DNA of 20,494 bases from positions 1 through 20,494 of the forward strand of contig JBDRGF010000139.1 of NCBI GenBank assembly GCA_043818055.1, written 5' to 3'. The notes under the pieces were generated by a model that was given only the letters and a program-made list of their open reading frames with translations, was not told the DNA's origin and made no database searches. The stretch is from Pseudomonadota bacterium (GTDB taxonomy: Bacteria > UBA10199 > 2-02-FULL-44-16 > JBDRGF01). How positions within the stretch are numbered: position 1 is the first letter of the stretch; every line of letters starts with the position of its first letter. Shown one piece after another: positions 3,709-15,282 of this stretch. Both the position numbers and the translations under genes were made by a program.

Positions 3709-5166
3709 ATGGATCAGATTATAGGGAGAAGAGAGGAATTAAAAACTTTGGAGAACATATACAGCTCAAATGAAGCTGAACTTTTAGCCATATATGGAAG
3801 AAGACGGGTTGGTAAAACCTTTTTAATTAACAAATTCTTCAGAGATAAGGGTGTCTATTTTGAGCTTACCGGGACAAAAGATGCCAAAGCACATGAACAG
3901 CTCATCAATTTCACTGCCGAGCTATCTCGCGTATTTCTACACGGAGAAAAGCGTGCAGCCCCTGCCAATTGGACAGAAGCATTTACATGTTTGAGAAATG
4001 AAATCGAAAAAATAGAGGAAAAAAGAAAAATCATACTATTCTTTGACGAACTTCCATGGTTAGCCTCCCAAAAATCAGGATTTCTTCAGGCCTTAGAGCA
4101 CTTCTGGAACAGATATATCTCCAGAGACAAGAGAATCATCACGATTATATGCGGATCGGCAGCATCATGGATGATCAAAAATATCATACATAGCAAAGGA
4201 GGTCTTCACAACAGAGTCACTAAAAAAATACGACTCCTCCCCTTCACATTGTCCGAAACCGAAGAGTTCCTAAATTCACGCAATATCAATTTGGATAGAA
4301 AACAAATTACAGAAATTTATATGGCTACCGGAGGCGTTGCGCAATATCTTAGATATATTGAGCGGGGAAAGTCGGCCACTCAAGTAATAAATGATATATG
4401 CTTTAACAGAAACGGGGAACTTTTTGATGAATTCGATAAACTCTATCGATCACTATTCGGCAGCTATGAAAATCATATTAATATAATAAAAGCCCTATCG
4501 AAAAAAAACTCAGGCTTAACAAAAGACGAATTATTAAAAGAAGTCAATTTAAAATCGGGAGGAACATCGAGCAAAACAATAAAAGAGCTGGAAGAAGCAG
4601 GCTTCATTGCATATATCCCCACTTTTGAAAAAAAGAAAGTGAGCGGACGATATAGGCTAATTGATGAATACTCACTTTTTTATTTAACATGGATAGTGGA
4701 AGCTCCAAATTCAAGCCTTGAAGGAGTCGATAAAGACTATTGGATAAAAAAACGAACAACCAGAAAATGGAGCACCTGGTCTGGCTACGCCTTCGAAAAT
4801 ATCTGTTTCAAACACATAACCAAAATCAAAGCAGCACTTGGAATATCAGGAGTGAGTACTTTAGAATCAAGTTGGTCTTACACACCCCCAAATCAGAGTA
4901 AAACAAAAGGTGCGCAGATCGACATGATAATTGATCGGGAAGATAATTGTATTAATCTATGTGAGATGAAATATTACAACTCAGAATTTACCATAGATAA
5001 AGGGTATGCAGAAAAACTAATGAACAAAAAAAACACCTTTAAAGAAAAAACAAATACCCGAAAGACTCTCTTCACTACCATGATCAGCACATATGGCACA
5101 AAAAAAAATGAACACTATCTCTCGGCTGTGGAGAATCAATTAATAATCGACGATCTTTTTGAATAA
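3709..5166 (+). CDS. AAA ATPase (archaeal-ATPase/ATPase_2-like) with winged helix and C-terminal PD-(D/E)XK-like domain
   Basis: IIGRREEL start, Walker A GRRRVGKT, Walker B FFDELPW, CGS sensor, TGGVAQYL, and C-terminal GAQIDMIID...LCEMKY. Confidence 0.88.
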   Translation: MDQIIGRREELKTLENIYSSNEAELLAIYGRRRVGKTFLINKFFRDKGVYFELTGTKDAKAHEQLINFTAELSRVFLHGEKRAAPANWTEAFTCLRNEIEKIEEKRKIILFFDELPWLASQKSGFLQALEHFWNRYISRDKRIITIICGSAASWMIKNIIHSKGGLHNRVTKKIRLLPFTLSETEEFLNSRNINLDRKQITEIYMATGGVAQYLRYIERGKSATQVINDICFNRNGELFDEFDKLYRSLFGSYENHINIIKALSKKNSGLTKDELLKEVNLKSGGTSSKTIKELEEAGFIAYIPTFEKKKVSGRYRLIDEYSLFYLTWIVEAPNSSLEGVDKDYWIKKRTTRKWSTWSGYAFENICFKHITKIKAALGISGVSTLESSWSYTPPNQSKTKGAQIDMIIDREDNCINLCEMKYYNSEFTIDKGYAEKLMNKKNTFKEKTNTRKTLFTTMISTYGTKKNEHYLSAVENQLIIDDLFE

Positions 5167-5195
5167 TGAAATAGTATAACAACAACGGCACGATC
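5163..5195 (+). repeat. Diverged copy of a segment near the 3' end of the protease gene (3420-3452)
   Basis: 28/33 nt identical and ungapped, including a 17-bp exact match ACAACAACGGCACGATC. Confidence 0.65.
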
Positions 5196-5221
5196 ACTGT
5201 GCGCAACCCAAACACCACATC

Positions 5222-5305
5222 ATCGACCTCTCCAAAAAAAACGCCATAGACATCGGCATGATTGGCACTGGTACGGCTAAAGTAGCTATTGCTGTGGTGG
5301 ATTAA
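5222..5305 (+). pseudogene. rlpA: Orphan 3' end of an rlpA allele (copy of 410-493)
   Basis: Encodes IDLSKKNAIDIGMIGTGTAKVAIAVVD* versus IDLSKKAAIDIGMIPTGTAKVAIAMVE*; 69/84 nt identical, ungapped. Confidence 0.9.
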
Positions 5306-5314
5306 ATCATTATT

Positions 5315-6004
5315 TTAATCTTTTTTCGGAAATGTCCAGAGGTAGGCGTCTTTGGCAACTCCGGCATCTGTCGCCTGCTGCCTTAGCTTTTCGGCCTCTC
5401 CACGGGTAAGATTTGAACCTATCACTACGGAATAATACTCACTATCGCCATACGGCTCATAAACTTGAGCATTAAAATCTTTGAATTTCTTGTTGATCAC
5501 GCGCGCCGCCCAGCCGGCATCTTCCGGCAATTTGAAAGAACCGGCTATAACAAACCAGACGTTGTTGGGAGATTGAAACGTAAACCCTCGCCACACTTGC
5601 TGTGAAATACTCTCCTGCGGCATGGAAAATTGCTTGAGCGCCCTCTCTCCCTCATCCGAATTTTGAGCATACGCATCCGTGATAGAAAAAATTGCCGAAA
5701 CAGGGTTGGCCATCGGCGGTTCAGGAAGGTTGAGTGCTTCACCATTCGCAGAATTAATGAACGCGGCTACGACAAACGGCGCCAGAATGCCAAGCTCCAC
5801 TAGCCTCTTGGGACGAGATTCGTCATGAATCGCTGCCCAGATGCCGCCTATGAACATCGCAGACACCCCTCTTAACAGAGCTCCGAGCAAAACCATCGCG
5901 GTCATCCCGAGCAATATTGTTTTGTGATCCGCTATGGCAAGCGTCGCACCGAAAGGAACAATGCCGCCGAGCGCCCCATATAAAAATTTTCTCGAGAATT
6001 TCAT
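5315..6004 (-). CDS. Membrane protein with C-terminal SPOR-like peptidoglycan-binding domain
   Basis: N-terminal hydrophobic helices; C-terminal WFVIAGSF...A...YYSVVIG...TRGEAEKLR pattern; purine-rich RBS upstream. Confidence 0.7.
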   Translation of the reverse strand: MKFSRKFLYGALGGIVPFGATLAIADHKTILLGMTAMVLLGALLRGVSAMFIGGIWAAIHDESRPKRLVELGILAPFVVAAFINSANGEALNLPEPPMANPVSAIFSITDAYAQNSDEGERALKQFSMPQESISQQVWRGFTFQSPNNVWFVIAGSFKLPEDAGWAARVINKKFKDFNAQVYEPYGDSEYYSVVIGSNLTRGEAEKLRQQATDAGVAKDAYLWTFPKKD

Positions 6005-6021
6005 ATAACCCCCCTAAAAGC

Positions 6022-6082
6022 AGTCGCTGGTGACTGGTCGCTAGTCGCTGGTAGATCCGCTAGAGACTAGCGACTAGCGACC
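6022..6082. repeat. Inverted heptamer-repeat hairpin (AGTCGCT / TAGCGAC units)
   Basis: GGTCGCTAGTCGCTGGT (6036-6052) matches the reverse complement of ACTAGCGACTAGCGACC (6066-6082) at 16/17. Confidence 0.8.
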
Positions 6083-6087
6083 GATTT

Positions 6088-6522
6088 TTAATTCTTTGGA
6101 AATGCCTTTCCCTCTTCCTGTGCAGCTGAGGGCAGCGAGTTGTGCCATTGAACTATCCGCCATTTGCTATTTAAATTCTCAAGCACGCATGTCACCCTGC
6201 CGGGAATATTCAAACTCTTTCCATCAACCTTTGCAACAACTACAAAGTCAGCAGCCACCCACGAGACCTTTTCGAAAACCGAGACCGATATCCACTGCCA
6301 TTCCCATTTGAGCTCCTCGGATTGTTCAAAGTCGCGCTGCAGCTGTTTTCGAATTTCATTAGGGCCAATACGCTTCTCATCCGAACCGGTGCCTAAGAAT
6401 ACTATATCATGCTCCGGCGCAAAGAGCCCCATGATACCATCGATGTCCTTGTACATGTAATACTGATTAAACTGGTTTAAAACCTCCATCACAGCTGATT
6501 CAGTCTTAGTGTCGGCTTTCAT
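6088..6522 (-). CDS. SnoaL-like / NTF2 family protein
   Basis: DIDGIMGLFA, IVFLGT...RIG, GRVTCVL...WRIVQWHNS pattern; SD AAGGAG upstream. Confidence 0.85.
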   Translation of the reverse strand: MKADTKTESAVMEVLNQFNQYYMYKDIDGIMGLFAPEHDIVFLGTGSDEKRIGPNEIRKQLQRDFEQSEELKWEWQWISVSVFEKVSWVAADFVVVAKVDGKSLNIPGRVTCVLENLNSKWRIVQWHNSLPSAAQEEGKAFPKN

Positions 6523-6703
6523 AAAACACTCCTTTTTTATAAGGCTTTTGTTAACAACTTTTTACAGTAAGAATCAATATTAATCTAGTGCTTCGTCAAT
6601 TTAATTTTCACCAGTGGAGATATGATAATATTAAATTGTTTCGAGAGCTTGTGCCCTTCCTGACTATAAATAATTTAATAGATGAGGTGCTAGCTTAAAA
6701 AAC

Positions 6704-6733
6704 TTGATTATCTCTCTCCATCATATATAGAAT
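6704..6733 (+). promoter_or_regulatory. Putative sigma70 promoter upstream of the tRNA-Ser array
   Basis: TTGATT (6704-6709), 18-bp spacer, TAGAAT (6728-6733), just before the first tRNA fragment at 6747. Confidence 0.45.
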
Positions 6734-6746
6734 CCCTTGCTTTATC

Positions 6747-6791
6747 GGAAGGATGCCGGAGTGGTTGCGGGTCCCCGAAGGGGAAAAACCG
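6747..6791 (+). pseudogene. tRNA-Ser 5' fragment A with hairpin at the anticodon region
   Basis: GGAAGGATGCCGGAGTGGTTG, then TCCCCGAAGGGGA, then AAAACCG; homologous to the 5' half of 7405-7495. Confidence 0.7.
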
Positions 6792-6820
6792 TGAGAGCTA
6801 TTTGAAAATTTGTTGCAATC

Positions 6821-6962
6821 GGAGAGGTGCCGGAGTGGTTGCACCACGGGCATAGAAAGCTGTAACGACTAGCGACGATTAAAACCGCCGCCAGCATAAC
6901 ATCTTTCTAAACGGCTGCGGTCTCGTCAGCCAGAGGCTGATCCGCCTTAGGCGGAAAAACCG
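6821..6962 (+). pseudogene. tRNA-Ser 5' fragment B with insertions in the D loop and anticodon loop
   Basis: First 21 nt are identical to the intact tRNA. A ~68-nt insert (6842-6909) follows, then GCGGTCTCG, two 15-nt palindromes (6926-6955) and AAAACCG. Confidence 0.8.
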
Positions 6963-6993
6963 TGAGAGCTATTTGACAATTGAGCAATCGGGT

Positions 6994-7111
6994 GGAGGGA
7001 TGCCGGAGCGGTTGAACGGGGCGGTCTCGAAAACCGCTGTCCCGCTTTGCGGGACCCAGGGTTCGCCCTGTCATACGACAGGGCGCCCTGTTGAATAACA
7101 GGGCGAATCCC
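6994..7111 (+). pseudogene. tRNA-Ser(CGA) copy C with a 40-nt double-hairpin insertion in the T loop, lacking the 3' acceptor strand
   Basis: Complete D, anticodon (CGA) and variable arms; GGGTTCG, insert 7066-7105, AATCCC; no acceptor 3' strand or CCA follows. Confidence 0.88.
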
Positions 7112-7122
7112 GGACAAATTAT

Positions 7123-7389
7123 ATGTACTACGTTTATATATTACACTTAGCGAACAACCAATTATACACAGGTTTTACGAGCGATTTAAAAAGAAGGATT
7201 AAAGAGCACGAAGGGGGAAAAGTTGAATCAACGAAACATAAAAGACCGTTAAAGCTGCTTCACTACGAAGCTTATCTCCTGGAGAGCGATGCGCGAAGAA
7301 GAGAAAAATATTTGAAAGGAAGTGAAGGTAAAAATTCATTGAGAAAACAGATTCGGGATATTTTGTTGAGCTTAAATAAAGAACTTTGA
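7123..7389 (+). CDS. Small stand-alone GIY-YIG nuclease family protein
   Basis: YYVYIL...LYTGFT...RRIKEH...ARRREKYLK, 88 aa. Confidence 0.92.
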   Translation: MYYVYILHLANNQLYTGFTSDLKRRIKEHEGGKVESTKHKRPLKLLHYEAYLLESDARRREKYLKGSEGKNSLRKQIRDILLSLNKEL

Positions 7390-7404
7390 CATTTCATTTC
7401 AATC

Positions 7405-7495
7405 GGAGAGGTGCCGGAGTGGTTGAACGGGGCGGTCTCGAAAACCGTTGTCCACTTTTAGTGGACCCAGGGTTCGAATCCCTGCCTCTCCGCCA
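7405..7495 (+). tRNA. tRNA-Ser (anticodon CGA), intact, CCA encoded
   Basis: Acceptor GGAGAGG/CCTCTCC plus GCCA; anticodon loop CT-CGA-AA; long variable arm GTCCACT-TTT-AGTGGAC; T arm CAGGG-TTCGAAT-CCCTG. Confidence 0.97.
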
Positions 7496-7533
7496 AAATA
7501 AATTTTCCCATGAAATGGGGAGATTTGTTTTGG
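7493..7533 (+). other. Long hairpin immediately after the tRNA (terminator or processing structure)
   Basis: CCAAAATAAATTTTCCCAT-GAA-ATGGGGAGATTTGTTTTGG forms a 19-bp stem with G-U pairs. Confidence 0.6.
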
Positions 7534-7550
7534 AGAATCGGCAGGGATGA

Positions 7551-7757
7551 AATCATCCTTCGAAGAAGGCTGATGTGGAACTGAGCGGCAACATCAACCT
7601 GTTTGTTCCCGGTGACAAGAGGGTCTTAGACGATATGCAAACAGTAGATGGTATTAAAATTGTCAACAACATCCAGCTCTATCTCGATCTTTACAAATAT
7701 CCGGCGCGTGGACGAGAGCAGGCAGAACACTTAAGGGAGCAGGTGATTCAGACATGA
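7551..7757 (+). pseudogene. C-terminal fragment of a type IV toxin-antitoxin AbiEi-like antitoxin/regulator
   Basis: GNINLFVP...IVNNIQLYLDL...RGREQAEHL matches my recollection of the AbiEi_2-type C-terminus. An in-frame stop at 7548-7550 removes the N-terminus. Confidence 0.6.
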
Positions 7758-8929
7758 AGAAAAAAACCGGCAAAAAACCTGTTAAAGCGAGCTCCTCTGC
7801 AGATGGCTTATTTAAGCGGATTGTCACTATTTTAGAACAGGCCAGGGCCAATGTTGTCCGGTCAGTCAACAGCAATATGGTAACGGCCTATTGGCTTATT
7901 GGCCAAGAAATTGTTCAGGAGCTTCAAAAAGGACAGGAACGGGCGGAGTATGGTGAACGGATCATTAGCAATTTATCTGATCGTCTGAATAGACGGTATG
8001 GCAAGGGTTTTTCGACCACCAATCTTTGGTACTTTAGACAATTTTACATAACCTTCAAGAATCGAAAGCCTGAAATTCTCCACCCAGTGGGTGGAGAATC
8101 TGAAACCCATAAAAAACTCCGCCCAATGGGTGGAGTTTCGCTTACAGGATTTCACCCTAACCTTTCTTGGACGCACTATCGTGCGCTGATGCGTGTTGAA
8201 AATACATCCGCCCGAAATTTTTATGAAGAAGAAGCGGTACGCTGTGGTTGGGACAAAAGAACTCTGGAACGACAGATTTCGACTCTTTTTTATGAACGAT
8301 TACTGAAAAGCCAAGACAAAAAGGGAATGCTTAAAGAAGTGGTCTCCAAAAATGACTCCCTCCAACCTATTGATGTACTGAAAAACCCCTATATCCTCGA
8401 ATTTCTCAATCTGCCAAATGATCCGAAACTGCGTGAATCAAAATTAGAGGAAGCCCTCATCGCAAACTTAAGACAGTTCCTTTTGGAATTGGGAAAAGGT
8501 TTTTCGTTTGTTGCCCGACAAAAACATATCCGCATTGGCAGCAAAGATTTTTTCGTGGACTTGGTTTTCTACAATTATCTCCTCAAATGCTTTGTGCTGA
8601 TTGATCTTAAGGTTGGCGATCTGACTCATCAAGACATTGGACAAATGGACGGTTACGTTCGGCTCTTCGAGGAGCAATGCAAAACTCCCGAAGACAATCC
8701 AACTATCGGGCTTATTCTCTGTTCCGACAAAGACGATGCGATTGCGCATTATTCTGTTTTAAAGGAAAGCCGGAAGTTATTTGCCTCACGATATAAACTG
8801 GTTTTACCCGATGAGGAAGAGTTGCGCAAAGAGATCGAAAGAGAACGCCGGCTCATTGAGAACGCCTTTGAGCCTGTTACGAAAAAATCTCTTTCTTCGG
8901 GCAAAGTTGGGAGAAAAAAGAAAAAGTAA
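7754..8929 (+). CDS. DUF1016/YhcG family PD-(D/E)XK nuclease-domain protein
   Basis: YWLIGQEIV, RAEYG, GKGFS..NL, LSWTHY, KNPYILEFL, FLLELGKGFSFVARQ, VDLVFYN, LIDLK, GQMDGYV, PTIGLILC. Confidence 0.93.
   Translation: MKKKTGKKPVKASSSADGLFKRIVTILEQARANVVRSVNSNMVTAYWLIGQEIVQELQKGQERAEYGERIISNLSDRLNRRYGKGFSTTNLWYFRQFYITFKNRKPEILHPVGGESETHKKLRPMGGVSLTGFHPNLSWTHYRALMRVENTSARNFYEEEAVRCGWDKRTLERQISTLFYERLLKSQDKKGMLKEVVSKNDSLQPIDVLKNPYILEFLNLPNDPKLRESKLEEALIANLRQFLLELGKGFSFVARQKHIRIGSKDFFVDLVFYNYLLKCFVLIDLKVGDLTHQDIGQMDGYVRLFEEQCKTPEDNPTIGLILCSDKDDAIAHYSVLKESRKLFASRYKLVLPDEEELRKEIERERRLIENAFEPVTKKSLSSGKVGRKKKK
8075..8138. repeat. Two in-frame 25-bp palindromes (39-bp period) inside the DUF1016 gene
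   Basis: ATTCTCCACCCA-G-TGGGTGGAGAAT (8075-8099, perfect arms) and AAACTCCGCCCA-A-TGGGTGGAGTTT (8114-8138, 11/12). Confidence 0.9.
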
Positions 8930-8955
8930 ATTTGCCAGCTCGGATCTGGCGAATT
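8929..8955. repeat. Solo DUF1016-type palindrome just after the stop codon
   Basis: AATTTGCCAG-CTCGGAT-CTGGCGAATT (arms 9/10); translates as ICQLGSGEL from 8930. Confidence 0.6.
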
Positions 8956-9028
8956 GTGGAGGGGGTTGGGAAGTTGTTAAGAAAGATGGGGGTAAATGAG
9001 CACTGATTCGACTCTTATAATCTTGACG

Positions 9029-9088
9029 CTCTACGGCTTGACCAAAGAAGAAATTGAAATTGTGGAAGGGAGGACTCAAGGTGACTGA
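9029..9088 (+). pseudogene. Extreme C-terminal remnant of a type IIG (Eco57I/TaqI-like) restriction-modification enzyme
   Basis: Translates LYGLTKEEIEIVEGRTQGD*, the typical LYGLTxEEIxIVEG terminus. Confidence 0.7.
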
Positions 9089-9971
9089 CAGACTTAATCC
9101 ACATTCCAGACCACATTTCTTCAAGTACGTTACTTATGATGGCGCCATCAACATCTTGCGGAATATTGCTATCAAGTGGAGTTCTCCTCTCACTTTCAAT
9201 GATCCCTTTGATATTCTCGTCAGGCCAAATATCGGATTCACTGAAGAGGAATTTAAAAAGCATTCCGAACAACGAATCTTAGACGAAATTAATTCAGAAA
9301 ATACGCCTACCCACAACGAAGAACTTATTACAAAAATAAGATCGGCTTCTTCACATTTTACCGAAGGAGATTTGAAAAGCATGTTAAAGCCACGAATTGA
9401 CACACTAACAGAACAGGCGTTTTTGATATTTGCAGAATATCAGAAACAATGGCTTGAATTTGCTAAAAACATTCGCGTTCTTTGTCTTTCCGAAGTTCAT
9501 GACAACTTGCTTATGTGGGCACATTATGCCAAAAATCATACAGGGGCGGTCATACAACTCAAATGCTTGCCGGACTCAGATACTGCTCCAACCAGCAGGG
9601 CTATTAGGGTCGAATATCAGGACGCATTTCCTTCCGTAGCCACGCCAGAGGAATGGACCAACGAAATATTGAATATTAAAACGCTCAATCGCAATGAGGT
9701 TTTCTTAAGATTCATGGCTACAAAAAGCACGCATTGGGCGTATGAGAAAGAATGGCGCTGCCTCGATCAAAAGAGACCAACCGACAATGGCGATCATGAA
9801 ATTTGTGCAATACATCCCGAGGAAATCGAAGCTGTTTACCTTGGTTGTCGAATGCCAGAAGAAAGTAAGCAAGTCATTAGGGGTTTGTTGCAAGGCAAAC
9901 TGAGTCACGTCAAAATTTATGAGGCGAAACAGCATTCAGAACGTTATCAATTAGTATTTGACCCGTTGTAG
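9081..9971 (+). CDS. DUF2971 domain-containing protein
   Basis: FFKY, SSPLTFNDPFD, CLSE..DNLLMWAHYA.NHTG, KS..WAYEKEWR. GTG at 9081 preferred because GGAGG lies at 9069-9073. Confidence 0.85.
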   Translation: MTDRLNPHSRPHFFKYVTYDGAINILRNIAIKWSSPLTFNDPFDILVRPNIGFTEEEFKKHSEQRILDEINSENTPTHNEELITKIRSASSHFTEGDLKSMLKPRIDTLTEQAFLIFAEYQKQWLEFAKNIRVLCLSEVHDNLLMWAHYAKNHTGAVIQLKCLPDSDTAPTSRAIRVEYQDAFPSVATPEEWTNEILNIKTLNRNEVFLRFMATKSTHWAYEKEWRCLDQKRPTDNGDHEICAIHPEEIEAVYLGCRMPEESKQVIRGLLQGKLSHVKIYEAKQHSERYQLVFDPL

Positions 9972-10023
9972 GTCAGTCGCTGAGTGGACAAGTTATTTTT
10001 GTTGTATAATTAGGAGGATAAAT

Positions 10024-10734
10024 ATGGGAGACATAATAAATACAAATACTTTTGAAATCAGATATAAGCCAAACCCAAAAGCACTCGATTATCGGGGCGC
10101 ATGGGCTGAAGTAATATCTGAGCACCTCCAGTTACCACGCTGGCGAATATTGGAAAATCGGTTGGATGTTTATAATGAACAGACGGGTGAGCGAGCTTTT
10201 GTTGGTTTTAGAAACGCAGGCTACGTCGTTCACAATTCTCAAACCGACAATTATTTCGCAGATAAAATCATCAAATTTGTGAAATTTCTAGTGACACTAA
10301 ATGGTTTTGAAAAAGAGCCTTTTATAGAGAGAATAGGCGTCCGTTCTATATATTGTAAAAAGTACAAGGAGTCTTTTGAAAAACTCAAAAACCTGTATCT
10401 TGAACGTTACATGAATTTAACTGATGCTGCCAAAAAACTATTGGATGCGACCATTTTGGACATAGGTGGTCATGTGAACTTTGCCGACAAGCATGGCAAT
10501 TTCAACACAATGAGTGGGCCTATGGAGCAAAAGCAAATGAACCAGTTTTTTGATCAAGAATATATAGGCGATTTGCCCGATATTGGATTGTTTTTTGATA
10601 TTGACTATTGGCTCACTCCAAAAAAACAAATGGGGCCCGGCGATATATCAAGTCATATCAATGATTTTTCGGAGGCTGCTAGAGAACGATTCGAGCAGAT
10701 GGCTTCTCATATTATGGAAGTTAAAAATGGCTAA
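10024..10734 (+). CDS. Hypothetical protein, TIGR04255-like
   Basis: SD AGGAGG before ATG 10024; FEIRY, IERIGVRSI and LFFDIDY resemble TIGR04255 family motifs. Confidence 0.55.
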   Translation: MGDIINTNTFEIRYKPNPKALDYRGAWAEVISEHLQLPRWRILENRLDVYNEQTGERAFVGFRNAGYVVHNSQTDNYFADKIIKFVKFLVTLNGFEKEPFIERIGVRSIYCKKYKESFEKLKNLYLERYMNLTDAAKKLLDATILDIGGHVNFADKHGNFNTMSGPMEQKQMNQFFDQEYIGDLPDIGLFFDIDYWLTPKKQMGPGDISSHINDFSEAARERFEQMASHIMEVKNG

Positions 10735-11179
10735 AAAAAGGAAGAAACAAAAAAACGTAGTACCAATAAAGAGTGCTTTTCGCGAGGAAACAAGTAGTAA
10801 CCCCGCTGTTCATCCTAATGCAACCCTTGCTCCGGGTGATGCTCTTCATTCCACCGCAGATAATAGCTGGCTTTCAACTGATTCAACTAACGCACCTATA
10901 CTCGGTGAGGAAGATCAAAATGAAAACACCTATGTTGAAAGCTATGCTGGACTTTTGGATAAACATATCTTGAGCAAGGGTGAATCGGTTTTATTTTTTA
11001 TTGCGATTGCCGTTATCGGGTATGTCTTTATCCAGGATAATGGTGCCGGTGCATTAAAAGATTGGAGTGGGCTTTTCTGGACTCTCAAAAAAGTGGGCGT
11101 AATTTTTGCCTGTTTTGTTGGGGCTCAGATTTTACAGAAGATTTATAAGTCCTGCGTTTCAAAGTGGAAAGCAAAATAG
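10727..11179 (+). CDS. Hypothetical protein with disordered N-terminus and two C-terminal TM helices
   Basis: ATG 10727 overlaps the upstream stop; hydrophobic segments VLFFIAIAVIGYVFI and VGVIFACFVGAQIL. Confidence 0.7.
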   Translation: MAKKRKKQKNVVPIKSAFREETSSNPAVHPNATLAPGDALHSTADNSWLSTDSTNAPILGEEDQNENTYVESYAGLLDKHILSKGESVLFFIAIAVIGYVFIQDNGAGALKDWSGLFWTLKKVGVIFACFVGAQILQKIYKSCVSKWKAK

Positions 11180-11204
11180 AGACAGTAACGTTATAAACCA
11201 AGGC

Positions 11205-11229
11205 AACTTCCGAGGATACCTCGGTAGTT
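11205..11229. repeat. Solo RhuM-type 25-bp palindrome
   Basis: AACTTCCGAG-GATAC-CTCGGTAGTT (arms 9/10); translates as ATSEDTSVVRK from 11203. Confidence 0.65.
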
Positions 11230-11297
11230 CGTAAGAGCTGGCTGGAAAAAATTAACCCCTGAGAATTGCACAGCTTATTCAAAACTTAGGAATAAAT

Positions 11298-11675
11298 ATG
11301 CTCCTCCACCTTCAATGCACAAAAAAGGTTCTTAAAATCGTCGGTGAGACCAAGGATGGGCCAGTCCCACTCAAGCCAACATTGCTTTCATGGCATGTAA
11401 ACGAGTTTCGAGTTGCCAGGCGAAAATTGTTGCTCTTTACCCATGACCTAACTTTTTATTCCGTATTCTGGTATCCCGCAACCAAACCGCATATCATGAA
11501 CATGAAAAATGTGTTGGCTTCCGAGCTTATGGATTCACTGATGGCCGCTGGTTTCACAGCAGATCAGGTCGAAGAATATTTCACTGGTTTTGACCATGCC
11601 ATTTTCACTCCAACCAGTTCACGGCAGGTTTTGGGTGTAAGGAGCTCCTCTATTTTCCATCTTCTATTCTCCTAA
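11298..11675 (+). pseudogene. DUF6933-like protein, probably truncated at about 11640
   Basis: LQCTKKVL, WHVN.F.V.RRKLLLFTHD.T.Y, TSSRQVLG, after which the frame runs into a low-complexity repeat arm. Confidence 0.6.
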
Positions 11676-11746
11676 TTTCTGAAGTTTCATGCCGTATTAT
11701 GGGCAAAAAGTCGGGAAAATAGAAAATGGAGAATTGAAAATAGAGG
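11647..11746. repeat. Inverted heptamer-repeat element (CTATTTT / AAAATAG units)
   Basis: Left arm CCT-CTATTTT-CCATCTT-CTATTCT; right arm AAAATAG-AAAATGG-AGAATTG-AAAATAG-AGG; outer 11 bp perfectly complementary. Confidence 0.8.
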
Positions 11747-11844
11747 CAAAGAAAATTTGTTAAGCTGCGAGTTTGGGAATGAAAATGAGGCCTTGTGTTT
11801 CCAAAATCTTGGTTCTATACACAGCGTCCACGATGGCCTGCTAA

Positions 11845-12041
11845 AAGAGAAAATATTGGTACGTGACGAGGAAAGATGGGGGAAAAATAACTTTGCCTGT
11901 GTTCAATGTGGTATGCGCCCACCTAGTGTTGAATTACATATAGACCACATAAAGCCTTGGAGCAAAGGTGGAAAAACAGAAATGAAAAATCTACAAACGC
12001 TTTGCTCAAAATGCAATATTGGCAAAAGTGATTTAGAATAG
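11845..12041 (+). pseudogene. HNH endonuclease domain, probably a 5'-truncated fragment (start approximate)
   Basis: CVQCG...LHIDHIKPWSKGG.T...NLQTLCSKCN.GKS; no convincing start codon or RBS. Confidence 0.75.
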
Positions 12042-12050
12042 CTGTTAAAA

Positions 12051-12104
12051 TTAGAGAGAAAATCAGTTGTCGAGAAATTCTCGGTAACTGCCAGCAACGC
12101 CAAA
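12051..12104 (+). repeat. Solo RhuM-type palindrome with flanking RhuM-like codons
   Basis: AGTTGTCGAG-AAATT-CTCGGTAACT (12065-12089, arms 8/10); translates LERKSVVEKFSVTASNAK. Confidence 0.7.
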
Positions 12105-12220
12105 CAATTTGGAAAGCTGCATAAACCCATTTTCTGTTGCTTTTTAGAACGTTAGAGCTAACAACATCGTAGATTATTATTTGCCGTGGTTAATGAACGA
12201 CAAAATTGAGGCACAAAATT

Positions 12221-13240
12221 ATGAAAAAGTTACCTGACAATCAAATTGCTTTTTATCAATCACCCGATGGTTCGGTGAATATTGAGGTTTTGTTTGCCGA
12301 GGAAAATATCTGGCTTTCTCAAAAAAAAATGGCGGAACTTTTTGACACAACACCTCAAAACATAACCCAGCATCTCAAAAATATCTATACAAATAGCGAG
12401 GTTAATCAAATGTCAACTTGTAAGGAATTCTTACAAGTTCAAACAGAAGGGGAAAGAGAAGTCAAAAGAAACACGTCTCTTTATTCGTTGGAGGCCATTA
12501 TTGCTGTTGGCTATAGGGTCAACTCCGAGAGAGGCGCTCAATTTCGGCAATGGGCAACGGAAATTCTTAAAAATTATATCCATAAAGGCTATGCGTTGGA
12601 CATCAACAGATTCAAATACGGTTCACGCTTCAGCGCCAGGTATTTTGACGAACTTTACGAAGAGATCAAAGACATCCGCTCCAGCGAGCGTATGCTCTAT
12701 CAAAAAATCACCGATATTTATGCCACAGCCATAGACTATTCACCCAAGACGTACGAGAGTAAACAATTTTTTGCGACAGTTCAAAACAAACTTCATTTTG
12801 CCATTACTGGGAAAACAGCTGCGGAAATTATTCAAGAACGCGTGAGTAGTAAAAAAGATAAAATGGGACTCACATCATGGAGAAGATCGCCGAACGGTAA
12901 AATTATGCCCAGTGATGTAGTTATTGCCAAGAACTATTTGGATAAAAATGAACTTACTGAACTCAATAGAATCGTGAACATGTATTTGGATTATGCCGAA
13001 ATGCAAGCTGCTCGCGGCAGGATAATGGCCATGAAAGACTGGATAGAAAAACTCAATGCCTTTTTGAAATTTAGTGAACACGATATTTTGACAAATGCAG
13101 GCAAGATCAATCATGAAGTAGCAGAAACACTTGCATTAGGAGAATATGGAAAATATCGGGTAATACAGGACAAAAACTATGTTTCCGACTTTGACCGCGA
13201 GGTGAAAAAATTATTTACATCTGCAAAGAAAAAAGAATGA
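12221..13240 (+). CDS. Virulence RhuM family protein (putative DNA-binding)
   Basis: IWLSQKKMAELF, NITQHLKNIY, YSLEAIIAVGYRVNS, QFRQWAT, DIRSSER, FFATVQNKLHFA, MGLTSW, AKNYL. Contains the in-frame palindrome at 12415-12439. Confidence 0.93.
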   Translation: MKKLPDNQIAFYQSPDGSVNIEVLFAEENIWLSQKKMAELFDTTPQNITQHLKNIYTNSEVNQMSTCKEFLQVQTEGEREVKRNTSLYSLEAIIAVGYRVNSERGAQFRQWATEILKNYIHKGYALDINRFKYGSRFSARYFDELYEEIKDIRSSERMLYQKITDIYATAIDYSPKTYESKQFFATVQNKLHFAITGKTAAEIIQERVSSKKDKMGLTSWRRSPNGKIMPSDVVIAKNYLDKNELTELNRIVNMYLDYAEMQAARGRIMAMKDWIEKLNAFLKFSEHDILTNAGKINHEVAETLALGEYGKYRVIQDKNYVSDFDREVKKLFTSAKKKE

Positions 13241-13311
13241 CGATCAAACTGACTCCCGACATCAAAGTAAAACCGAAAAAGGATGACCTCGAAACAGCAA
13301 TGAAGTTTTTG

Positions 13312-13342
13312 GCTGATAACTGACGGCTGATAGCTGACAGCT
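13312..13342. repeat. Tandem heptamer repeat between convergent genes
   Basis: GCTGATA-ACTGACG-GCTGATA-GCTGACA-GCT. Confidence 0.75.
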
Positions 13343-14894
13343 ATCCCCCCACCACCTTCATCTCCAAAATCCTGTCCACCCTGAAGGTGCGTTGTTCTTT
13401 GCGATTATGACAATAGGCGCTGATCCCAATGAATGGTTTTTCAAGATAGAACATCTTGCCAACCTTGATCGGTTCGATCAGGCGCTTTGATTTTTCATCC
13501 TTCGATTTGAGATATACGATTTCGACCCTCTTCTTCTCATCGATGCATTTGAGCAAAACCTTTAGCTTCTCTTCGATCGGCAGCTCCCTCTCAGAAATAT
13601 TATATTGATGCTCCGTCACAAATTTCACGACGCGCCAATCGACCCAGATGTGGGATTTCTGGAGCTCCCGCTTCAAGACAATCCCCTCGAGCGTCCGGCA
13701 GCGACTCAACGCAACATACATCTGACCTGTTGCGAAAGTCCCCTTGCCCACATCTATCACCACATGATCGAAGGTCTTTCCCTGGCTCTTATGGATCGTG
13801 ATTGCCCACGCGAGTTTGAGCGGATATTGCATAAAGCTCCCGACGCTTTCAGTCGCAACAACCTTCTTCTTGTTATCGTACTGATAGCGATACATCTCCC
13901 ATGTGAAGGGCTCTATCTCTTCGATCGATCCATCAGGAAACTTCACACTGACGCCATCCTGTTCAAGGGATGAGATCGTGCCGATCGTGCCATTCACCCA
14001 ACGACCCAACCTGTCGTTATTGAGGAGCATCACCTGCGCCCCCTTTTTCAATTTCAGCCCCACCTCCGTCGGAAGCGCCTTGGTATCGAAATCACCAACG
14101 ACATCACCATAAAAAGTACGGCCCCTCGAGGGAAGCTGCGACAATTTTTCTACGTTTATTTCAAAGGCACGTCGGTTCACGGCGGTCAGATATATGTATT
14201 GCCCGTGAGGTTCAAAGTTGGGGTCAAACCGGCTGTTGAATGCCGATATAACATCTTTCGTTATCGAATTATTACGAACGGCGTTGAGCATGTGAATGAA
14301 GTTCGAGTCGCTCTGCCTGTAAACCTTTTCAAGCTCGATATATTCGAGCGAGACATCTGCAAAGACATGCGAGTCAAAAAAATAGGGACTTTTGTAATGG
14401 TCGGAAAAGAGCTCCTTTTCATGCCAGGTGACTACCGGCGGAAGCTGATAGAGATCCCCGACCAGCAGCAGTTGAACGCCGCCAAAGGCCATCGACCTTT
14501 TGGCACGAATGGTTCGCAAAAAGGTATCGATACAGTCCATAAGATCAGCCCTCACCATCGAGACCTCGTCGATCACAATCGTATCGATGCTCTGGTAGAG
14601 CTTTTCCCTCTTCTTCTTTTTCGCGTTGTTGGCATTTCTTATAGCCTGCTCAGGCGTGATATCGGGCTTGAAACCGAAAAATGAATGGATCGTCTGACCA
14701 CCCACATTCACAGCCGCCACACCTGTGGGAGCCAAAACGACTATCTTTTTTTTCGTCTTGGAGCGGAAATATTCAAGAAATGTGGATTTGCCGGTACCTG
14801 CCCTGCCAGCCACCAGAAGAGATTCTGTGCTATTTTCGGCAAGATCATAGGCCTTTTTGAACTCGTTATTGATTTCGATATGCTTTAAATCCAT
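13341..14894 (-). CDS. Pif1-family (SF1B) DNA helicase with C-terminal WYL domain
   Basis: GRAGTGKS, APTGVAA, IDEVSM, GDLYQLPPV, YRQ, QYPLKLAWAITIHKSQG, YVALSR; tail IVY...RLIEP...AYCHNRKEQRTFRVDRI. Confidence 0.92.
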   Translation of the reverse strand: MDLKHIEINNEFKKAYDLAENSTESLLVAGRAGTGKSTFLEYFRSKTKKKIVVLAPTGVAAVNVGGQTIHSFFGFKPDITPEQAIRNANNAKKKKREKLYQSIDTIVIDEVSMVRADLMDCIDTFLRTIRAKRSMAFGGVQLLLVGDLYQLPPVVTWHEKELFSDHYKSPYFFDSHVFADVSLEYIELEKVYRQSDSNFIHMLNAVRNNSITKDVISAFNSRFDPNFEPHGQYIYLTAVNRRAFEINVEKLSQLPSRGRTFYGDVVGDFDTKALPTEVGLKLKKGAQVMLLNNDRLGRWVNGTIGTISSLEQDGVSVKFPDGSIEEIEPFTWEMYRYQYDNKKKVVATESVGSFMQYPLKLAWAITIHKSQGKTFDHVVIDVGKGTFATGQMYVALSRCRTLEGIVLKRELQKSHIWVDWRVVKFVTEHQYNISERELPIEEKLKVLLKCIDEKKRVEIVYLKSKDEKSKRLIEPIKVGKMFYLEKPFIGISAYCHNRKEQRTFRVDRILEMKVVGG

Positions 14895-15029
14895 AAAACT
14901 AAAAGCTCCATTCCATGGGGTGCGGCGAGGCTAACCATAATATAGGGGGAATTAAAAGAAGATTTTTAAAAATTTCTCTTTGAATAATTGCAAATTGGTA
15001 GTAAAGTCCATCCCGGAAAGGAGGAAAAT

Positions 15030-15252: not shown

Positions 15253-15282
15253 AGGGGCGGGATACTAACCCGCCCTTTTTTA
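15253..15282 (+). terminator. Rho-independent terminator
   Basis: GGGCGGG-ATACTAA-CCCGCCC followed by a T run. Confidence 0.85.

Follow-up and report, generated by a model that had tools for sequence, protein, structure and literature searches.

We analysed a 20,494-nucleotide (nt) stretch of DNA from a Pseudomonadota bacterium (contig JBDRGF010000139.1 of assembly GCA_043818055.1; hereafter the window), in which a gene of the DUF1016/YhcG family carries two 25-nt palindromes within its own codons and is followed by a third directly after its stop codon (Table 1). The open reading frame matches the Pfam families DUF1016_N (PF17761; residues 23–182, E 1.6e-43, 148.5 bits against a cut-off of 32.8) and YhcG_C (PF06250; E 1.7e-55, 187.6 bits against a cut-off of 32.5). 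The protein also matches PADLOC PDC-S02 (residues 13–372, E 5.7e-142), which is a candidate class and not a validated defence system. In the AlphaFold2 model (mean predicted local distance difference test (pLDDT) score 80.2), residues 101–138 form a low-confidence, disordered linker (pLDDT ~50) that holds both palindrome units. The nuclease part is nearest in fold to the dimeric enzymes NucS/EndoMS and Hjc, and a sequence search of solved structures with the window protein returned nothing. Across 72 aligned homologues, D269 and K286 of the nuclease motif are invariant and D284 is at least 90% conserved. YhcG was placed in the PD-(D/E)XK superfamily by Kosinski et al. (2005, PMC1189080), in whose account the nuclease activity is a prediction.

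Table 1. Features of the DUF1016/YhcG locus, in window coordinates
Feature	Position	Strand	Description
tRNA-Ser(CGA)	7405..7495	+	Found by ARAGORN and Rfam tRNA; just upstream of the DUF1016 gene; the candidate-defence island begins after it
DUF1016/YhcG gene	7754..8929	+	391 residues; helical N-terminal domain, disordered linker, helical domain, PD-(D/E)XK nuclease core
Predicted DNA-reading element	8012..8041	+	Codons of residues 87–96 (S87, T89, W92 onward), start of helix 88–100; columns 87, 89 and 92 track bases 7, 6 and 5
Linker unit 1	8075..8099	.	ATTCTCCACCCA G TGGGTGGAGAAT; perfect 12-1-12 palindrome; encodes ILHPVGGE(S)
Linker unit 2	8114..8138	.	AAACTCCGCCCA A TGGGTGGAGTTT; 11/12 pairs plus one G–T; encodes KLRPMGGV(S)
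Nuclease motif	8558..8611	+	Codons of D269 ... D284-L-K286; conserved in aligned homologues
Solo 25-nt palindrome	8930..8954	.	10 Watson–Crick pairs plus one G–T of 12; starts one base after the TAA stop, in the same phase

A preliminary description, made from the letters of the window, had reported palindromes encoding ILHPVGGES and KLRPMGGVS, 13 codons apart, before LSWTHY, and direct reading of the positions confirms it: both units start in codon phase 0 and lie 39 nt apart. Their outer triplets differ with compensation (ATT/AAT versus AAA/TTT), as had also been stated. The core pattern common to the two units has 2 matches in the window against 0.02 expected from shuffles.

The preliminary description had proposed a survey of DUF1016 genes, for which we gathered 80 loci from named genomes of many phyla (one archaeon), 80 from metagenomes, 7 from relatives and 80 from viral contigs. 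Our comparison reveals that the linker holds a palindrome of at least 9 of 12 pairs in 156 of 165 distinct proteins from many phyla, and of at least 10 pairs in 130 of them, which argues against the possibility, raised beforehand, that homologous linkers are not palindromic. A further 49 of 64 proteins of the viral-contig set contain a linker palindrome of at least 9/12, and a viral-contig scan using IPW-type paralogues found no relatives. In 74 of 84 genes, the best 25-nt odd palindrome of the entire gene falls in the linker that precedes the (L/I)(S/P)W..H motif (chance 18%; binomial p 9e-45); 72 of these 74 have phase 0, and in 51 the centre lies exactly 12 nt ahead of the motif. By comparison, pairing of 10/12 is reached outside the linker at 3 of 71,865 positions in the rest of the 84 homologous genes. 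A chance origin was set aside on the basis of this placement in linker and phase, together with the excess of core matches in the window.

The consensus unit reads ATT-N4-AC-N-CA-N-TG-N-GT-N4-AAT, with A1, A8, C11 and their partners conserved, and one to three units occur per gene, often with a period of 39 nt. Both linker units of the window belong to this family, being 25-nt odd palindromes in phase 0 before the motif, with A1, A8, C11 and their partners. Five DUF1016 paralogues are present in the genome, and at the same spot each carries a different palindrome (5/5). In addition, contig C133 of this same genome (G000) bears a relative of the window gene that has decayed to a DUF1016 pseudogene interrupted by stop codons and yet keeps palindromes of 11/12 and 10/12 (at ~3136 and ~3210), and orphan unit-like palindromes without gene context occur on contig C58 at ~12415, 1.2 kb from the paralogue of that contig. 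No published description of the linker palindrome was found in the literature searched on the DUF1016/YhcG family, with or without palindrome terms; the own-codon palindromes of a nuclease gene thus constitute an arrangement without description in that literature.

The preliminary description had further held that the symmetry is selected at the level of DNA, and the wide occurrence of palindromic linkers is joined here by evidence from codon choice and covariation. The observed pairing averages 10.6, as compared with 5.4 in synonymous recodings that follow the codon usage of each gene (p<0.05 in 77 of 77 genes), and all four Watson–Crick types are present at pairs 4/22, 5/21, 6/20, 7/19 and 10/16. 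In a set of 131 distinct units, both sides differ in 333 cells, versus 96 in shuffles, and the covariation score is 0.549 against 0.128 when shuffled (0 of 500 shuffles as high; slid controls at most 0.123), the units for this and for the coupling analysis below having been preselected at no fewer than 9 pairs, which inflates the percentage paired. The variable residues of the unit share codon bases (NCA gives T/A/S/P, NTG gives L/V/M and NAA gives E/K/Q); the encoded residues track the conserved bases, and the peptide follows the DNA. A repeat driven by the peptide was set aside on two grounds: pairing lies far above that of synonymous recodings of the same peptides, and the linker is disordered in the model.

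An RNA hairpin acting in the transcript, through ribosome pausing between the domains, mRNA stability or binding of the protein to RNA, would also select symmetry within a gene. Each window unit does fold as an 11-base-pair (bp) RNA stem (–17.9 and –17.1 kcal/mol; z –4.0 and –5.7), the codon phase is fixed, and one metatranscriptome contig ends at 8962, 8 nt past the post-stop copy, which is a weak hint in the same direction. The mismatches speak otherwise. Of 219 mismatches in 154 distinct units, 47 are G–T, 56 are A–C and 116 are of other kinds; G–T (G–U in RNA) is not in excess over A–C, which argues against an mRNA hairpin and differs from known structured RNAs. Moreover, solo copies stand in gene-less DNA (Escherichia coli strain S2, see below) and at insertion borders, and no Rfam family covers the palindromes (a search of 6000–13500 that admitted E values up to 1 returned the tRNA region and otherwise just weak, unrelated hits). 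We regard this explanation as very improbable.

Specific coupling between residues of the protein and bases of the palindrome is also seen in the family. The start of helix 88–100 is where protein columns share most mutual information with palindrome bases. Arg89 occurs with G6 in 33 of 33 cases and Ala89 with C6 in 18 of 18, whereas at residue 92 the basic residues go with G5 (Arg92, 68/70; Lys92, 22/23) and the aromatic ones with T5 (Trp92, 14/14; Tyr92, 25/26); Asp87 accompanies G7 in 55 of 63. Contacts of Arg or Lys with G, and of Asp with a G:C pair, are common in protein–DNA complexes. In phylogenetically independent pairs, picked on a FastTree phylogeny built without columns 83–139, all changes run in the same direction for residue 89 (n = 19, p ~8e-6), residue 92 (n = 10, p ~0.004) and residue 87 (n = 11, p ~0.002). 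The viral-contig set served as a hold-out, for which the rules had been fixed beforehand on the first set: G6 is found in 14 of 14 units with Arg89 as compared with 3 of 22 without it, and an aromatic residue 92 goes with T5 in 10 of 10. Where residue 7 of the unit is Ser, its codon is TCN in all 12 cases with Arg89 and AGY in all 18 without; since the serine codons sort by residue 89, the link is to the base and not to the amino acid. Within multi-unit genes, 37 of 41 units fit the residue-89 rule and 33 of 41 the residue-92 rule. The window protein, with S87, T89 and W92, fits both of its linker units, whose common core CTC is in agreement with the W92 rule. The coupling lends indirect support to the earlier suggestion that the palindrome may be the binding site of the encoded protein.

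It is in the coupling that the evidence bears on a structural alternative, in which the DNA hairpin or cruciform itself matters or just persists, possibly through other machinery or by template switching between the arms (quasi-palindrome correction), with no specific reading by the encoded protein. Several observations are in keeping with it: the arms co-vary freely at positions 4–7 and 10, units of one gene differ by compensated changes, the decayed pseudogene on C133 still holds its palindromes, and fragile DNA structures alone could place palindromes at rearrangement borders. In addition, the innermost pair 12/14 is weaker (A–T 107, G–C 15, A–C 15, G–T 14), as expected of a hairpin loop. 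By contrast, structure alone predicts neither the tracking of bases 7, 6 and 5 by residues 87, 89 and 92, which has one direction across independent lineages and the hold-out, nor the sorting of serine codons by residue 89, and it leaves unexplained both the conserved A1, A8 and C11 with their partners and the near-absence of such palindromes elsewhere in the genes. Taken together, a purely structural origin is unlikely.

We therefore favour, with moderate confidence, the reading that the in-frame palindromes at 8075–8099 and 8114–8138 are double-stranded DNA docking sites of the encoded nuclease itself, predicted to be read by residues 87–92 at the start of helix 88–100. This reading is drawn from the fixed place and phase of the palindrome across phyla, the co-varying arms, the peptide that follows the DNA and the three residues in step with three bases.

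A number of points weigh against docking by the encoded protein. The rules are not universal: in the hold-out, only 11 of 19 units facing a basic residue 92 have G5, 8 of the 41 units of multi-unit genes break the residue-92 rule, and the E. coli K-12 YhcG has Arg92, yet G5 occurs in only one of its three units. The quality of the FastTree phylogeny, like the preselection of units, has to be counted here, and on the tree the serine-codon test gives only 2 independent pairs on supported branches (8 on all branches). Part of the coupling may stem from helix and linker having been inherited together as a short block, which a tree built without those columns cannot see. Furthermore, units inside the same gene, compared with one another, show 50 compensated double changes in 264 positions; the symmetry of each unit is thus maintained for itself, be they all read by one protein or not. 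In the fold search, matches were confined to the nuclease part of the window protein, and its N-terminal domain matched no known DNA-binding fold. An efficiently cut cognate site could not persist within its own gene, and cutting there could therefore be only occasional. The reading of the preliminary description is further limited by two features of post-stop copies, namely their scarcity in the family and, in the window, a core that departs from the reading rule, as follows.

The element after the stop codon of the window gene had been described as a further copy of the linker unit, of the same length and phase. Length and phase are borne out, while the 9-7-9 form given at the time was rescored as the 25-nt odd palindrome of Table 1. 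It shares A1/T25, A8/T18 and the ATT/AAT ends with the family unit and lacks C9/G17 and the inner C11–A12/T14–G15, having T11–C12/G14–A15 instead. Its core TGC is of the type paired with Arg92 proteins and not with W92, and hence lies off the reading rule of the window protein. In the orthologue of genome G032 (73% identical DNA), two palindromes follow the stop, one of which is 19/25 identical to that of the window, while the flanks outside the palindrome cannot be aligned; no copy of the post-stop element other than the window's own and the one in the G032 orthologue turned up in a genome-wide search.

For this copy alone, it has to be weighed whether it is an ordinary terminator of transcription or a hairpin that arose by chance, with no relation to the linker units; the former had been named beforehand as the reading that would undo the claim. 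An intrinsic terminator test of 8930–8954 gave no site on the plus strand and only a weak one on the minus strand, where a 5-bp stem with a T-rich tail scores terminator-like; on the gene's own strand the element is not terminator-like. The absence of the family's inner CA-N-TG and C9 fits an unrelated hairpin, as does the rarity of such copies, since a palindrome of at least 10/12 lies within 200 nt after the stop in only 14 of 167 genes, ~6 of them unit-like. On the other side, 10/12 pairing is met at just the few coding positions counted above, length, phase and ATT/AAT ends are held in common with the linker units, the G032 orthologue retains a recognizable copy between flanks that are otherwise unalignable, and in E. 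coli K-12 a perfect solo copy lies 16 nt beyond the stop of yhcG. A terminator or chance hairpin is thus decidedly unlikely, and the window's post-stop copy is probably a border copy or a copy of foreign type, which the window protein should not read. Right behind it lies a small open reading frame, MSTDSTLIILTLYGLTKEEIEIVEGRTQGD, at 8996–9088, whose C-terminal motif is also present at the orthologous locus of G032, there behind a fragment that, judged from translation, resembles an N-terminal part of a type I restriction subunit. The small frame is probably what is left of a restriction–modification gene adjoining the DUF1016 gene.

Solo copies were also found beside other genes of the family, where a strict definition yields 9 copies in 8 of 243 loci, as compared with 0 in shuffled flanks. 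At locus L059, ~50 nt of the linker, ending at the palindrome, are repeated upstream of the gene; at L019, an orphan N-module ends after two units; and at L038, a perfect copy of foreign type stands ~40 nt before the start codon. In Logan contigs of low depth, no joint at a palindrome was seen, and contig breaks at 8099–8114 are not evidence of rearrangement, since palindromes break such assemblies anyway.

The clearest border positions are provided by E. coli, for which the loci L285 (K-12; NC_000913.3, 3358000–3372000), L286 and L288 were compared. The K-12 yhcG gene has three linker units with a 39-nt period, and a second solo copy lies 15 nt after the stop of gltD. These YhcG-type solo palindromes stand exactly at both borders of an 8.3-kb segment, gltF-yhcADEF-yhcG, that is present or absent between strains. 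In strain S2, the region from gltF to yhcG is absent and a single perfect palindrome lies between gltD and nanQ, and this empty junction, without yhcG, is contiguous in 946 of 5426 E. coli genomes. In the other E. coli genomes sampled, the left piece runs to the final base of the palindrome and stops there, and in BL21(DE3) the yhcG homology stops exactly at the last base of unit 3. From these coincidences it follows that the palindromes mark places of past DNA breakage and rejoining in E. coli. The claim of the preliminary description that the unit can expand or move likewise agrees with the variable number of units per gene, often at a regular period, the solo copies beside some genes and the E. 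coli copies at the segment borders.

The related NucS and Hjc folds suggest how docking might proceed: a symmetric dimer would sit on the dyad, with one 12-bp half-site for each subunit. With the site inside the gene, protein and address would move together in horizontal transfer, and through the diversification of the cores each of the five paralogues of this genome would be confined to its own sites. Three roles may be ranked. In the first, by analogy with the aba element of the defence protein BstA, docking would mark the carrier DNA as self and restrain the nuclease. In the second, the bound site would act as an intragenic roadblock that limits expression of the gene itself. In the third, the DNA would now and then be broken and rejoined there; this role is needed in some form, given the palindromes at the E. 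coli cassette borders and beside some genes, and the window's post-stop copy may be a border copy that arose in this way.

BstA of prophage BTP1 may be regarded as the nearest experimental precedent. In the account of Owen et al. (2021, PMC8585504), BstA is a defence protein with a DNA-binding N-terminal domain whose short aba DNA element overlaps its own gene; aba acts as DNA, each BstA variant has its own cognate element, and self-immunity is demonstrated by experiment. As described there, BstA–aba resembles the YhcG arrangement in that a cognate DNA element overlaps its own defence gene and protein and site travel together, whereas aba is a 63-bp element at the start of the gene with terminal direct repeats and the YhcG unit is a translated palindrome in the linker. 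BstA, unlike YhcG, does not appear to be a PD-(D/E)XK nuclease, and self-immunity for YhcG is an analogy only. Palindromic DNA translated in frame inside protein-coding genes is likewise described for the Rickettsia palindromic elements, which are selfish insertions of ~100–150 nt spread over many unrelated genes within a single genus (Ogata et al. 2000, 2002, as cited in PMC4316617). Against that description, the YhcG unit does not qualify as such an element: it is 25 bp long, stands at one fixed codon position in one gene family across phyla, and is coupled to residues of the protein.

Initiators of replication also embed their DNA site within their own coding sequence, as in pT181 RepC with its origin and lambda O with ori-lambda, and relatives within the pT181 family differ in the site and, along with it, in the specificity of the protein. 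Both share with YhcG a site embedded in its own gene. Their sites are plasmid or phage replication origins, whereas nothing in the YhcG case points to replication; YhcG genes lie in chromosomal islands and restriction loci, and their site is one short, perfect, translated palindrome. A further likeness is offered by homing endonucleases with long near-palindromic sites, such as the PD-(D/E)XK enzyme I-Ssp6803I and the dimeric I-CreI, in the symmetric site of ~20–25 bp, the presence or absence of the gene between strains and the intact palindrome, a putative site, at the empty E. coli S2 locus. In contrast, homing genes are known to interrupt or lack their own target, whereas YhcG keeps the matching site intact inside the gene (156/165). 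Integron attC sites and the repetitive extragenic palindromes (REP) with their REP-associated tyrosine transposases (RAYT) combine conserved outer bases with a variable complementary middle and solo copies at cassette borders, and differ from YhcG in that neither is known to have a coupling of the site to residues of the resident gene. The attC sites are 57–141 bp long, imperfect, and recognized by the integrase as a folded single strand. An attC site was set aside, given this length and imperfection in comparison with the 25-bp unit and the failure to find an integrase gene in the window; no RAYT gene was found in the window either.

The window gene stands in a tRNA-Ser-linked run of PADLOC candidate defence genes (3709–15000), which comprises a PDC-S27 ATPase, GIY-YIG, PDC-S02, PDC-S31 (DUF2971), DUF6933, HNH, PDC-S05 (RhuM) and a PIF1-WYL helicase; the genes neighbouring the DUF1016 gene match the candidates PDC-S27, S31, S05 and S68. 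In the synteny comparison, the nearest relative genomes belong only to the same order, the island is not conserved, and no empty site is definable for the window. Just upstream of the tRNA, a ~110-nt stretch (6585–6693) is repeated on at least 6 other contigs of the genome at 85–92% identity, and a 33-nt stretch (6926–6958) occurs in many related genomes at up to 97% identity; both may be small mobile or repeat elements. The palindrome AGGGGCGGGTTT-N-AAACCCGCCCCT has more than 30 copies across genome G000, with a similar one at window 15255–15275, and is probably a terminator or REP-like element.

A parallel arrangement is seen in the RhuM gene of the island (12206–13240), which has an in-frame 25-nt palindrome of 11/12 at 12415–12439, at the first residues of the Pfam RhuM domain. 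Among full-length RhuM genes of same-class genomes, the best palindrome of the gene lies at the start of the RhuM domain in 15 of 16. Without exception these palindromes have phase 2; their ends read A(A/G)(C/T)T, and their cores co-vary. Two RhuM-type solo palindromes, each of 10/12, are intergenic in the island (12065–12089 and 11205–11229). DUF1016 and RhuM genes are described by Milman et al. (2023) as enriched beside the targets of programmed inversion.

A broader arrangement may be imagined, which we put forward as speculative and on balance doubtful: a self-addressed cassette system, in which each nuclease would read a private 25-bp palindrome in its own codons, solo copies would serve as chromosomal docking or entry sites, and segments ending in such a gene would be inserted, excised or swapped there. 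The gltF–yhcG segment of E. coli K-12, with two flanking copies versus one elsewhere, would be an example, and gene-embedded address tags, RhuM included, might be a general and so far undescribed principle organizing defence islands and restriction loci.

YhcG/DUF1016 is a very widespread, uncharacterized nuclease family of bacteria, archaea and phages, with a member in E. coli K-12. Should the palindrome prove to be the site of the protein itself, it would be the first testable DNA target for the family, would come with a simple residue-to-base reading rule, and would give a reason for the many non-cross-reacting paralogues. The design of the RhuM genes and the border palindromes in 5426 E. 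coli genomes bear on gene gain and loss in defence islands. The palindrome as the protein's own site would also mean that, over deep evolutionary time, selection at the level of DNA has dictated the amino-acid sequence of a segment of the protein.

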